A stretch of DNA of 25,587 bases. Source: a virus. Lineage: Duplodnaviria; Heunggongvirae; Uroviricota; Caudoviricetes. The notes under the pieces are model-generated. The model had not been told where the DNA came from, made no database searches, and saw only the letters and a program-made list of their open reading frames with translations. Each line of letters opens with the position of its first letter. The stretch's first letter is position 1. Where the stretch lies: the IMG/VR virus record IMGVR_UViG_2537561620_000017, positions 1-25,587 of that record. One strand, given 5' to 3'. This document shows, in pieces, positions 14,058-20,009 of the stretch. Position numbers and translations under genes: made by a program.

Positions 14058-14965
14058 TCAGAATGTCAGTTTGTCACTGGATTTACCGAATTTGTCAGAC
14101 ATGGCTCCCAGGCCAGCCAGGACATCGACCTGTCGCTGTCGCCCACCTCCGGGAGCGGCTGGCTGTTGCCAGAAGTCTTCGAAGTGACGATCGGGTCCAA
14201 AGAACGTCGCAGCCTGCTTCACGAACTGTGTGCCGGTATTTCCTGTGGCACGTACCCAGGCAGCATAGCGTTTCACGCCATCAAGCATGGCTTCAGGTTT
14301 TATTCCCTCCCTGAGCCGGGCTTTCCAGGCTTTGAAGGCTGCGGATTTTGAGTTACCACCAGCACGTTTTGGATATTCCTGCCAGGCCTGTTCAAATTCC
14401 GGTGAATATTCCTGTCGGGAAGAACGCGCTGGTGCAGACGCGTCAGCAGATGCGCCAATAGTGTTTTTACTCTCTGTAGTATTCTCTGAAGTAATCTCTG
14501 TTGTATTCTCTGTAAGATCGAAATTGGTTTTCCCTTCTCCGCGGCGAGGGGTTTCCCGTGTCCGCGGTGAAGGCTTTCCCTCCTCCGCGAAATTGGGTTT
14601 TACAGTTTCCCGAAAACGGGTTTCCCCATTTCGGGAAACTGATTGTTTTCATTGATAATTTCATTAAGGCGCTCACAATCTATACGGTAGAACATTTTGT
14701 GCTCAAGACGCTTGTTGGTTTCAACCAAAATGCCTCTGGACACAAGATGCTTACGCGCTACAGCCTGTTGTTCAAATGTAAGTCCGGTTTCGTGTTGTAT
14801 CTCTTCACGCGTTTTATGTACGCCTTCCGCTGCATGTGCTTTATCCTACCAGTAAAAAATCTGACCAAAGAAAATAACAGCGTGCGGACTTCCCATGTAT
14901 TTAACGAGCCCAGGGTAATAAGCAACCGGATGTCCAAAATCGAGCAGAAGATCAGACGGACGCAT
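14058..14965 (-). pseudogene. lambda O-like replication initiator (replisome organizer) with an in-frame amber codon and a -1 frameshift
   Basis: N-terminal frame MRPSDLLLDFGHPVAYYPGLVKYMGSPHAVIFFGQIFYW-TAG-DKAHAAEGVHKTREEIQHETGLTFEQQAVARKHLVSRGILVETNKRLEHKMFYRIDCERLNEIINENNQFPEMGKPVFGKL stops; the rest continues in the -1 frame (...RETVKPNFAEEGKPSPRTRETPRRGEGKTNFDLTENTTEITSENTTESKNTIGASADASAPARSSRQEYSPEFEQAWQEYPKRAGGNSKSAAFKAWKARLREGIKPEAMLDGVKRYAAWVRATG...KLTF). TAG is at 14846-14848; the frame change is within about 14600-14650. Confidence 0.75.
14470..14640. repeat. ori: iteron-type replication origin inside the O-like gene
   Basis: Three roughly 23-bp direct repeats on the gene strand (CGCGGAGGAGGGAAAGCC / CGCGGACACGGGAAACCC / CGCGGAGAAGGGAAAACC), plus degenerate GGGAAAC copies, next to an AT-rich block with ACAGAGAATAC repeats. 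Same layout as ori-lambda (iterons plus AT-rich region inside O). Confidence 0.7.
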
Positions 14966-15185
14966 AGCCACCTCCCAGGCGTTTAAACATTTTTCCGGGC
15001 TGAAACGCCACCAGCGGATAACTCAGGGTATGAGTACGTCCCTGAACCTGGCAGACAACCTTCTGGCTTTCGGTACTGACCAGGCAAACCCGCAGAACGT
15101 AGCCGTTGCTGGTGGTGAACCACTGCCCCACACGGGGGCAATGGTTGTATCGGTGATACAGGAAATTAACGATGTGGCGGATCAT
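14952..15185 (-). CDS. hypothetical 77-aa protein between the Rha-like gene and the O-like gene
   Basis: ORF in operon position with small overlaps at both ends; no family recognised. Confidence 0.4.
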   Translation of the reverse strand: MIRHIVNFLYHRYNHCPRVGQWFTTSNGYVLRVCLVSTESQKVVCQVQGRTHTLSYPLVAFQPGKMFKRLGGGYASV

Positions 15186-15745
15186 GGGAGCACCTCCTTG
15201 TCAGAACCATTCAGCCTGGAATCAACAAGTGCAGCACCAAAAACAGCATCACCTACACGGTCGTACAGTTTGCCAGCCAGCGGAGATTCAACGGCCTTAA
15301 GCATTGGGTAAAGCTGGCTTGTCCAGATTTGATGGATTTCACGCAAATGCAGGTATACGCCTCTGGCGTTTTGTGCGACAGATGACATGTCAGCCGCACC
15401 AGCTCCTGATAAGCTCCTCTCCATCTGGTTAAAGGCATTGATGTATGCCTCTTTGAACCGGGCGGCACGTTTACCAGTGAAGCCCATAGCAAGGAAGGCG
15501 AAGCCGTCGCGGGTAATTTGGTAGCAGGGAAGTTTGCGAGTACCGCCGTTGGGCTGGCGTACCAAAATTGATGTCTCCGCAAAATTGCGGGCACAAAACT
15601 CTGGAGAACAATCCAAAATGCGGATCTTTTTCAGAACATCGTCATGACGTTTAGAGAAGAAGTTGGCAACAGCCAGGGATGAAGTAACAGCCTGACCATC
15701 AACGATGGCAATTTCAGGTTGAGAGAGGGTTGGGAGAGTAGTCAT
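15182..15745 (-). CDS. Rha-family phage regulatory protein
   Basis: MTTLPTLSQPEIAIVDGQAVTSSLAVANFFSKRHDDVLKKIRILDCSPEF...ILVRQPNGGTRKLPCYQITRDGFAFLAMGFTGKRAARFKEAYINAFNQME matches the Rha domain pattern. The track ORF extends 151 codons further upstream, but that part does not look Rha-like. Confidence 0.75.
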   Translation of the reverse strand: MTTLPTLSQPEIAIVDGQAVTSSLAVANFFSKRHDDVLKKIRILDCSPEFCARNFAETSILVRQPNGGTRKLPCYQITRDGFAFLAMGFTGKRAARFKEAYINAFNQMERSLSGAGAADMSSVAQNARGVYLHLREIHQIWTSQLYPMLKAVESPLAGKLYDRVGDAVFGAALVDSRLNGSDKEVLP

Positions 15746-17605: not shown

Positions 17606-17664
17606 ATAAAAAGGCCTGCGATTACCAGCAGGCCTGCTATTAGCTCAGTGATGTAGATGGTCAT
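17587..17664 (-). CDS. candidate 25-aa hydrophobic peptide
   Basis: ATG immediately after the helicase stop (TAAATG) with a GGAG Shine-Dalgarno 6 nt upstream; encodes MTIYITELIAGLLVIAGLFIWGRGK, a single predicted transmembrane helix. Confidence 0.35.
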   Translation of the reverse strand: MTIYITELIAGLLVIAGLFIWGRGK

Positions 17665-20009
17665 TTAATACTCCGTCACGTTTTCCTGTCGCCACGCCTC
17701 GTCATATTCCGATTTCGGCATATTGGCGATGTAGCTATATGGCGATCCTGATTCAAGTTGCAGGAACTGGTGCGATTGCTCGTCAAGGAACAACGGGACA
17801 CCACCTTCCCAACCTTCGCCGTTACGTTGTTTTTCAAGCATCAAAACAGATGCCGGAGATGCCAGTAGCTGTTCGTCCTTCTCTGACATCTTTTCACCAC
17901 TCTGAACTCTCTGTAACGCTCTCTCGCGAGCCTTGTTACGCCAGATGATGAAAAGGTTGTCTGTCAGGTCTGTTATCGCTCCAGAGCCTTTTACGTCCAT
18001 TTTCCCGGTTGGTTTTTCTTCGCTGTCTCCTTTTCGCGAGTGAGTAACGAGAATGACGTGGGAGTTTGTTTTGTTTTTGAAGTCGCAAATCGAGTCAACA
18101 AACGCCTTCTGCCCGTTATAGTCATCGTCGCCTATGCCACATTTCATCAGGCTGTCGATGATGAATAACTGGATCCCGTATCGGCGGCGAGCGTAGTCGA
18201 ATATTTCGATCAGCCTGTCGGCTTTCGCCGTTCCAGTCAGGCCAAACACCCAAAGTCTTTCGTCATAAAATTTAAATGCAGAGTCAATTTCCAGCACTGG
18301 CGGCATCTTGCAGCACGTTGCCTGACGGGTAAGTCGCTTAAGGAGAATACCAGGCTTCAGCTCAAGTGACGCGATGCACGTCTTCACACCCTGACGCATT
18401 GCCTCAAGTGCCATATGCCCGACAACCTCGGTGTTATGCGTCGCCACATATCCCCTGGTTACATACAGGTGGCGAGGGTGATCGACCATAATACACAAGC
18501 ATTCTGCATTGCCGATTTTTTCAACATTCCTGACGAATACCCCACAGCCCTCGAATCGATGCGCAGTTAATCTGCCATTGAGTCGTGGTGAACGGATGGC
18601 CTCCCTGATTTCTCTTGTCAGTCTGATTCTTGCCTCGTATGAATCCATCCCATGCCGCTTATCGTCCTTGTATGTGTATGTCACGCCAGTTTTAACTCGC
18701 GTCCGGCATGACCCGCCGAGTGAGTTAACCAGTTGAACAACCCCATTGCGCAGTTCTTCACTTGCTGAGGAAAAACAAGCGTTCCATCCTTCTCGACATA
18801 CCCATCCGTTTCAAGCAGACCACACAGCATGCCTATACGCGTTGATTTATTTGCGGAAAAAAACACACGAGGGATGAATTTGTTTTTTGCTGTGCACCCC
18901 ATTAGTCCATAACCTCGCAGGGTCTCCATGAGTGGATTTACCTGACCACGCGCCGTTGATATCAGCCAGTCCTTACCATCTCCAGAGAAGTTGTAATCAG
19001 GCAGTTCAGCCTTCATACGCTCGATCATGTATGGCTCGACGTTTGAAAACTTCACGCTCCCATTGCTAAGACTACCATCCCCGAGAAGGGAGCCGATAAC
19101 CCATGCTAATGGCTCTGAGTGGTCGCCAAAGTCACCAGTTATTTCAGGAATCCTAACGCCATTTTTGTGCCTCTTCGTTTCACTCAACCGCTTCAACCCG
19201 AAGGTATCTATCACGCGGCGTTTCTCGCCTTTCGTGAATCCACGACTAGTGACCTCCCATAGGTGATCGCCTGCGCAATCAACATAACGACCATCTTCAA
19301 ATGTGACTCGGTAAACATCTCTAACACCCTGCGGGAATATCCCAGTGACAGTTGACGGATTGCCGTCTACTGACGCCACCTGATCGCCAATTTTTACATT
19401 CCCGTGAGTAGTCCATGTCCCATCAGCTAAAAGAATAGGCTCATTCAGTGGGCATGCCTTTCCGTGACCGTTCACACCATTGACCAGCGTCAACTCTGCC
19501 TCACGGAACTGGAATTTATCTGCCAGAGATTCCCACGGTGGATTAAACAGATACTGCTGCTTGCCGTAGAAAGCGTTGATAGTGTCCTGGTAAAACTCTC
19601 GCGCACTGTAGAGTTCTTCAGGATCGAAGTAGGATGCCGTGCCGATGTACTGCCAGATTTCATCCTCGGTAACACCGTTCATCAGGCATTCGTTGATGTC
19701 TTTGTACGGCAGAGTAACAAGACGGCAACGATGTTCACCGAGTCGGCTTGCGATTTCCCTTGCGGCTTCACGACCAACATCATCAACGTCCATCGAGATG
19801 AATATTTCCTCAAACCTGTCGAGGTTATGATACTCAAACTCAATCCACTGTTGCTTAGCGCCTTTCCCGCCACCAAACGGCACGGATAACGCCGAGATGC
19901 CGTATTGCGCATAGCTCATACAATCAATTTCGCCTTCGCAAAGCACAACCGCCCTCACGCCAGCGTCCAGAGCCTGCCATCCGAACAGGCAAGGTTCGCA
20001 ATCACCTTC
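17665..20009 (-). pseudogene. T7 gp4-like primase-helicase carrying an intein; 5' end removed by IS629; frame broken inside the intein
   Basis: TOPRIM-like start (AVVLCEGEIDCMSYAQYG), helicase motifs in the downstream ORF (LFIIDSLMK, HVILVTHSRKG, GSGAITDLTDNLFIIWRNK, resembling T7 gp4 helicase). The reading frame continues upstream to the IS629 boundary (EGDCEPCLFGWQALDAG...). The gene appears as two ORFs (18681..19958 and 17665..18684) overlapping by GTGA. Confidence 0.75.
18433..19454 (-). other. intein with LAGLIDADG homing endonuclease domain
   Basis: Begins CPLNEPILLADGTW (block A-like) right after GVNGHGKA, has two LAGLIDADG-like motifs (LAWVIGSLLGDGSL and IGMLCGLLETDGYV), and ends ...ECLCIMVDHPRHLYVTRGYVATHN followed by Thr (+1). 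Span is 1022 nt, one base short of 341 codons, consistent with a single-base deletion. Confidence 0.75.

Follow-up and report, generated by a model that had tools for sequence, protein, structure and literature searches.

Three genes of a Shigella flexneri prophage remnant, encoding a toxin, an intein-bearing toprim protein and an O-like replication protein, each appear to be broken by the loss of a single base, raising the question of whether these lesions are mutations of the prophage or faults of the sequence record. The window (the whole stretch of 25,587 nucleotides that was analysed) comes from the 2012 draft of S. flexneri K-1770 (GCA_000268245.1, AKMX01000023.1). The contig AKMX01000023.1 matches it at 100% identity over 20,231 nt, the window's products carry the database name '[Shigella flexneri K-1770]', and GCA_000268245.1 is given as K-1770 in PMC6397287.

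Three lesions and a second assembly of the same strain

Comparison with intact relatives confirmed the preliminary description in its central observation: the toxin, intein and O-like genes are each one base short in a homopolymer, the changes being T6 to T5, A6 to A5 and T4 to T3, respectively, and all three fall within 14600-18790. Runs of at least six bases hold 0.9% of the window, and on a chance baseline taken from window composition the probability that two random deletions both fall in 6-mers is approximately 1e-4. Runs of at least four hold 6.7% of bases, and the run of the third lesion, taken alone, is weakly suggestive as evidence for a homopolymer pattern. The broader wording, that each lesion lies 'in or near a short homopolymer', is true of all three but discriminates poorly because 17% of window bases sit in runs of at least three.

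[quoted passage not shown] The draft and CP032513 derive from different laboratory stocks. The corresponding CP032513 loci span window positions 1-9919, 3898-21170 and 11775-25587 plus a further 7.5 kb, giving 35.5 kb compared in total. The sister genome was retrieved through a 108-aa Ead/Ea22-like protein, the integrase (135-1205) being too common; no E. coli complete genome spans more than 54% of 14000-20050, which directed attention from E. coli to Shigella. Positions 1-9919 are identical in the two K-1770 assemblies, and the only differences across the 35.5 kb are a SNP at 10865, within an IS66-family element, and gaps at 16263-16267 and 18771-18775. The hybrid assembly thus lacks the toxin and toprim lesions and retains the O-like one. 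We consider it highly probable that the window combines two homopolymer undercalls of the draft (toxin T5 and toprim A5) with one genuine, inherited T4 to T3 mutation in the O-like gene.

Toxin and toprim tracts

The toxin tract lies in the first gene of an overlapping pair:

16064-16392, plus strand: Gp49/HigB-like (RelE/ParE superfamily) toxin gene, intact at 109 aa in CP032513 and frameshifted only in the draft
16263-16267, plus strand: T5 tract in the toxin gene, read as a true T6 from CP032513, assemblies L019-L025 and relatives
16382-16690, plus strand: HTH (XRE-type) antitoxin gene, intact (Pfam HTH_3)

Alignment to E. coli FDAARGOS_943 revealed a T6 tract and an intact 109-aa toxin gene, and all 10 E. 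coli genomes matching an 81-mer at this tract carry the additional T (short tract in 0/10). T6 is also present in CP032513 and seven near-identical assemblies (L019-L025), as well as in the sister lineage and in assembly L007. Once repaired, the draft toxin translates to the CP032513 toxin. The toxin scores 91.4 bits against Pfam PF05973 (Gp49) and the antitoxin 43.5 bits against PF01381 (HTH_3), both above cut-off. The 109-aa intact toxin sequence occurs on 365 contigs, and the exact antitoxin sequence on at least 1000. The true sequence therefore encodes a complete predicted pair of Gp49/HigB-like toxin and HTH antitoxin. In gene order (toxin first), in the 11 nt that the antitoxin gene shares with the toxin 3' end and in its Gp49 and HTH_3 domains, the pair resembles a type II toxin-antitoxin module, from which it differs by a toxin frameshift confined to the draft. 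The module in this window is to be read as intact.

The second tract lies on the opposite strand, within an intein:

17665-20011, minus strand: remnant of a toprim primase-helicase gene (full length 968 aa), without its first 187 codons by alignment to the intact gene
18433-19454, minus strand: predicted 341-aa intein in the helicase P-loop (GHGKA/CPLNEP...VATHN/T)
18771-18775, minus strand: A5 tract (coding strand T5; read as a true A6), inside the LAGLIDADG endonuclease domain of the intein
20012-21323, minus strand: IS3-family insertion sequence (orfA 108 aa, orfB 296 aa) truncating the toprim gene

The intein is predicted from its ends, a Cys1 and an HN/T junction seated in the P-loop (GHGKA/C...THN/T), together with a LAGLIDADG_3 match of 31.7 bits, above cut-off; at 23.9 bits the Hom_end_hint match falls short of its cut-off, 32.1 (Pfam). 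The A5 versus A6 difference is the sole gap in a 3,285-nt alignment to FDAARGOS_944, and the extra A is found in 79/79 E. coli genomes matching an 81-mer at the tract, the short tract in none of the 79. CP032513 carries A6, as do L019 and L020 (the two near-identical assemblies that reach the site), the sister lineage and L007. None of the species-representative genomes contained an exact copy of a 40-mer spanning the A5 lesion. A search covering 153 billion gene positions placed the split products of 412 aa and 260 aa on one contig; the unsplit 760-aa ORF was found on 26 contigs, including the sister assemblies. Exact matches were obtained with the draft's own gene calls (412 aa, 260 aa and 42 aa); toprim pieces of 339 aa and 425 aa and a 71-aa toxin fragment gave none, as gene callers chose other start codons. 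The 412-aa/260-aa split is an artefact: one miscalled 6-mer produced the two database entries, 'DNA primase/helicase' (EIQ18092) and 'gp61 domain protein' (EIQ18030).

The toprim gene is nevertheless dead, because the IS element took away its first 187 codons. Alignment to the intact gene ends at the IS junction (20011/20012), a second IS copy matches 20010-21323, and the missing 5' piece is absent within the window. Neither this truncation nor the amber codon at 14846-14848 in the O-like gene featured in the preliminary description.

The toxin and toprim lesions are attributed to draft error because CP032513 and the near-identical isolates carry the long tracts, and because the split products occur on one contig. 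T5 and A5 would thus be one-base undercalls of true six-base homopolymers, made in the sequencing or assembly of the 2012 draft, and the real genome would hold an intact toxin-antitoxin pair and a toprim-helicase remnant reading through the intein unbroken. Like the homopolymer miscalls of pyrosequencing, ion-semiconductor or unpolished nanopore drafts, these are single-base undercalls at A/T runs of six that occur in one assembly only, are no longer seen once the strain is assembled with Illumina polishing, and break up conserved ORFs. They differ in that few runs were hit: relative to CP032513, two of the 39 true runs of at least six bases in the window are altered in the draft, and runs of five or fewer are all unaltered. 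The pattern points to a homopolymer-prone sequencing chemistry, 'systematic' in this case referring to two events in 35.5 kb. A literature search for the sequencing platform of GCA_000268245.1 did not find it.

Replication slippage also clusters in homopolymers, where all three lesions fall, and the prophage is visibly decaying, with a real amber codon, the O-like frameshift and IS truncations. As the two K-1770 assemblies come from different stocks, all three lesions could be genuine slipped-strand mutations, the 2012 subculture having carried both short tracts through recent slippage, either fixed in laboratory passage or heterogeneous within the strain; the toxin of an otherwise intact pair would then have been inactivated. 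We regard this as very unlikely. T6 and A6 were found when the strain was resequenced (110x MiSeq, 470x MinION), and the short alleles occur in no other assembly, with T6 in seven near-identical isolates and A6 in the two reaching that site. L019 and L020 show 0 mismatches to the draft over 8.2 kb besides the two gaps. Furthermore, if the stocks truly differed by two deletions and no substitution outside IS elements over 35.5 kb, hundreds of stock-specific indels would be expected across the genome.

The O-like replication gene

The third lesion lies in a repeat-rich part of the O-like gene, which also carries a nonsense codon:

14058-14965, minus strand: O-like replication-initiator gene ('DNA-binding protein / replication protein', full length 302 aa), pseudogene
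14603-14641, no strand assigned: 18-nt quasi-palindrome in the iteron-like repeat region of the gene, from a repeat search
14636-14638, minus strand: one-base deletion, coding strand T4 to T3 (A3 on the plus strand), from alignment to E. coli O121
14846-14848, minus strand: in-frame amber codon (CAG to TAG), from three-frame translation and alignment

The gene shares 99.7% identity with WP_001247839.1, an intact 909-nt CDS of E. coli O121, and the deletion is one of three differences in total from E. coli O121 201805972. At the lesion the coding strand reads CAGTTTCCC versus CAGTTTTCCC in the intact relative, and three-frame translation reveals both a change of frame and a stop. A shift in the GTTTTC tract was ruled out, as alignment to intact relatives places it in CAGTTTT(C), at 14636-14638.

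The deletion is common to CP032513, L019-L024 and six sister-lineage assemblies (L005, L006, L008, L011, L012 and L014); L025 keeps the shortened run, with a SNP in it. T3 was found at every orthologous S. flexneri locus examined, and the deletion in both lineages examined. The diagnostic 121-aa frameshift product occurs on 515 contigs (NCBI, ENA, Logan). A 76-aa C-terminal ORF (643 contigs) was not used to count the frameshift, since it is also predicted where the gene is otherwise disrupted (L007, L009 and L013). The amber site has G in 9/9 other loci compared, and the amber codon is present in CP032513 and L019-L025. It is confined to the lineage marked by DnaB N106, a marker found on 50 contigs. 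The deletion is genuine and inherited, and the amber is genuine and specific to the K-1770/SFL1520 lineage.

That all three lesions are sequencing errors, leaving the O-like gene intact and no genuine frameshift in the window, has a practically negligible probability and is already refuted. In form the O-like lesion does match the other two: a single base is lost from a coding-strand T run. However, it is reproduced in the Illumina-polished CP032513, in the six sister-lineage assemblies and in L019-L025, its 121-aa product is widespread, and CP032513 also holds the amber in this gene, which is a substitution. Of the two causes put forward at the outset, sequencing error accordingly suits the toxin and toprim/intein genes, as the long tracts of CP032513 and near-identical isolates indicate, and decay suits the O-like gene, whose lesion recurs across S. 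flexneri.

On the preferred reading, the T4 to T3 change would have been fixed in an ancestor of the S. flexneri prophage, with the amber arising later in the same gene in the K-1770 lineage. The deletion lies in the right arm of the 18-nt imperfect inverted repeat, beside which lie flanking direct repeats D1-D3 (14468-14634). The left arm already had T3, so the arms now match. Loss of one T from a T4 run in a repeat arm, such that the arms are made to match, resembles the one-base deletions that come from quasi-palindrome-templated mutation or replication slippage, and the deletion probably arose by one or the other. A run of four, however, is only weakly slippage-prone (6.7% of bases are in such runs).

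Both phase variation and programmed frameshifting make use of homopolymer tracts in coding regions (e.g. IS3-family orfAB and dnaX), and the window's IS3-family elements are annotated with programmed frameshifting. The short tracts could in principle be functional, either as phase-variable contingency tracts or as sites of programmed ribosomal frameshifting giving full-length protein; we find this scarcely credible. Tract length is invariant among isolates, with T6 and A6 everywhere except in the draft and T3 at each orthologous O-like locus, and 4-6 nt is short for phase variation. There is no canonical X_XXY_YYZ heptamer in the zero frame at GTT TTT ACT, and the true sequence is in frame, so that frameshifting is not needed.

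Consequences for the K-1770 annotation

The pattern had been taken to affect how every pseudogene call in the window should be read. This was overstated, as a single call flips, the toxin being intact. CP032513 shows every other lesion unchanged, namely the O-like frameshift and amber codon, the IS insertions and the truncation of the DnaB-like gene, and the other pseudogene calls stand. For a defective lambdoid prophage in a Shigella genome rich in IS elements, the O-like and IS lesions would be ordinary decay. They are typical of the pseudogene formation and IS decay of Shigella prophages, with nothing unusual about them: here the O-like gene acquired a frameshift and later a nonsense codon, IS elements truncated both the DnaB-like and the toprim gene, and the distribution of the lesions among isolates is phylogenetically coherent.

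The result is an ordinary one that bears on annotation hygiene only and brings no new biology. Should two errors per 35.5 kb be representative of the whole genome, false frameshifts in the K-1770 draft may number a few hundred or so, and for this reason the pseudogenes of the strain are better counted in CP032513.

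Gene content and the three frame changes

The window corresponds to a lambdoid prophage that has decayed and is rich in insertion sequences. Across 14000-20050 it contains the following features:

14058-14965, minus strand: O-like replication gene
15182-16198, minus strand: Ash/Rha-type regulator ORF (338 aa)
16064-16392, plus strand: Gp49/HigB-like toxin (Pfam Gp49, 91.4 bits)
16382-16690: HTH antitoxin (Pfam HTH_3 match)
16905-17315, minus strand: ninB, with a 92-97-aa ORF listed alongside
17665-20011, minus strand: toprim primase-helicase gene with intein, adjoining the IS3-family element
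20012-21323: IS3-family element (orfA 108 aa, orfB 296 aa)

The element appears to combine what is left of two or more prophages. At most 54% of 14000-20050 is present in any one complete E. coli genome. Pfam bears out the gene assignments given above. For the toprim gene, a Pfam search with the intact E. coli homologue placed Toprim_2 and LAGLIDADG_3 above the cut-offs, and Hom_end_hint and AAA_25 below them. Two distinct phage replication modules lie 2.7 kb apart, one of O-like, DnaC-like and DnaB-like genes (11898-14965) and the other formed by the toprim-helicase with its intein (17665-20011). A lambda-type integrase adjoins the element, beside a chromosomal pectinesterase gene (locus L038, 8715-11203).

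Three-frame translation revealed one frame change in each of the toxin, toprim/intein and O-like genes. The preliminary description attributed all three to one-base homopolymer losses, and alignment to intact relatives indeed places each one in such a run. The toxin has T5 at 16263-16267, compared with T6 in E. coli FDAARGOS_943, where the gene is annotated as intact (109 aa). In the toprim gene, A5 at 18771-18775 (A6 in E. coli FDAARGOS_944) is the sole gap in 3,285 aligned bases. The O-like coding strand reads CAGTTTCCC in the window (plus-strand A3 at 14636-14638) and CAGTTTTCCC in E. coli O121 201805972, where the gene is intact; the one-base deletion is among only three differences in all. 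With 0.9% of window bases in runs of 6 or more, the joint probability for the two 6-mer lesions is ~1e-4, and their location in homopolymers is beyond chance. The location of the O-like 4-mer lesion is no more than mildly suggestive, 6.7% of bases being in runs of 4 or more.

Toxin and toprim tracts in the same-strain complete genome

Matches to exact protein sequences indicated Shigella flexneri as the source. Over 20,231 nt the window agrees at 100% identity with contig AKMX01000023.1 (GCA_000268245.1), the products of which are labelled S. flexneri K-1770; the strain is given under this assembly accession (PMC6397287). The check suggested at the outset, comparison with an independent assembly, was made with CP032513, the complete genome of the same strain under its other name, SFL1520 (4,575,536 bp; MinION 470x and MiSeq 110x, assembled with Unicycler and Pilon; PMC6424224), and revealed T6 and A6 but a retained O-like deletion. 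Three overlapping stretches of CP032513 were compared, covering 35.5 kb of the draft contig: L039 is identical to window 1-9919, L018 spans 3898-21170, and L028 spans 11775-25587 plus 7.5 kb further. Over the 35.5 kb, draft and complete genome differ by one SNP and exactly two one-base gaps, the latter corresponding to the toxin and toprim tracts. The sole substitution (window 10865, T versus C) is located inside a multicopy IS66-family element, and may stem from repeat collapse in one of the two assemblies.

Other assemblies agree with CP032513. Two near-identical isolates (L019 and L020) have zero mismatches to the window over 8.2 kb apart from the toxin and toprim gaps, T6 is found in five Logan assemblies of independent runs, and T6/A6 occur in a sister S. 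flexneri lineage (L005, L006, L008, L011, L012 and L014) as well as in locus L007. Among complete E. coli genomes, the short toxin tract was found in 0 of 10 and the short toprim tract in 0 of 79. The 412-aa and 260-aa products specific to the draft's frameshifts occur on one contig only in the whole collection; by comparison, 365 contigs carry the intact 109-aa toxin and 26 carry the unsplit 760-aa toprim ORF. Restoring the base in the window renders the toxin identical to that of CP032513, and the toprim gene then reads 781 codons unbroken to the IS junction. Scattered one-base indels relative to the window in L009 (UGBT01000002.1, 8263-12363; 15 gaps in 4.1 kb) and in L011 and L012 (LR861788 and LR861785; 4-9 gap positions per alignment) look like residual long-read error, and these loci were therefore not taken alone as arbiters of tract length.

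From these sequence comparisons, we conclude that the toxin T5 and toprim A5 are homopolymer undercalls of the draft, as opposed to features of the organism. We infer the error chemistry behind them, as neither the draft's sequencing platform nor its reads were found in the literature searched. It is highly improbable that both lesions are genuine stock-specific mutations: two stocks derived from one isolate would have to differ by two indels over 35.5 kb and yet by zero non-IS substitutions, and the short tracts are common to no other assembly. Phase variation and programmed frameshifting are not supported, given that tract lengths are constant among isolates and that the true sequences are already in frame.

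An inherited deletion in the O-like gene

The distribution of the O-like lesion refutes the proposal that all three are errors. The gene also contains an in-frame amber codon (CAG to TAG, 14846-14848), absent from the preliminary description and itself one of the three differences from the O121 gene. Window and CP032513 do not differ in either deletion or amber codon, and both are retained in the near-identical isolates L019-L025, where the sole change is that one base of the shortened run is substituted in L025 (14636 A>G). All six sister-lineage assemblies have the deletion and none the amber codon (CAG there). On this distribution the deletion is genuine, and the amber codon is real and restricted to the K-1770/SFL1520 lineage. 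Because the sister lineage carries the deletion without the amber codon, the ancestral frameshift came first, with the lineage-specific nonsense mutation arising later. The 121-aa product, which arises only through the frameshift, occurs on 515 contigs from several sources, and the amber lineage is marked by further private SNPs, for example DnaB N106 (exact protein on 50 contigs).

An 18-nt imperfect inverted repeat (14603-14620/14624-14641) lies amid iteron-like direct repeats, and the deletion falls in its right arm. The left arm is already T3, so the deletion raises the symmetry between the arms, the right arm now matching. Within the O-like gene, 14468-14641 contains three 12-nt-spaced, three 23-nt direct and two 15-nt repeats in addition to the 18-nt quasi-palindrome, and probably serves as the phage's origin of replication. 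The deletion may plausibly have arisen either by slippage in the T4 run or by quasi-palindrome templating.

Consequences for pseudogene calls

With T6, the toxin-antitoxin pair is to be regarded as intact. The Ash/Rha fusion ORF (15182-16198, minus) overlaps the toxin gene (16064-16392, plus) in antisense at its 5' end, which seems to be an artefact of gene calling on an ash remnant. In assemblies with T6 this ORF is called as 374 aa, running through the tract; the T5 miscall thus alters the opposite-strand call too (338 versus 374 aa).

The toprim-helicase is a pseudogene whatever the tract length, because its first 187 codons are missing at the IS junction (20011/20012), the alignment to the intact 968-aa gene ending at 20011. 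The missing 5' piece was found nowhere else in the window, hence a deletion came with or after the IS3-family insertion. The DnaB-like helicase ORF (11898-13172) has 424 aa versus 463-466 aa in relatives, and its end lies 3 nt from the 533-aa tnpC ORF of the IS66-family element (~9255-11894), an arrangement shared with CP032513. This suggests that the element cut off the C-terminus.

In the sister lineage (L005, L006, L008, L011 and L012), the IS66-family tnpB (9926-10273) has its own one-base deletion (CCC to CC at 10038), so that TnpB is 53 aa long instead of 115 aa, and an additional IS3-family insertion lies within the element. The window retains the intact IS66 state, placing K-1770 as outgroup to these strains.

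The initial alternative of sequencing error or decay resolves to both, error applying to the toxin and toprim tracts (T6/A6 in CP032513) and decay to the O-like gene (lesion kept there). The accompanying doubt over every pseudogene call was too strong: the IS insertions, amber codon and O-like frameshift are reproduced in the same-strain CP032513, and are therefore real. Overall the explanation is mundane: two assembly artefacts and one ordinary inherited prophage pseudogene mutation.
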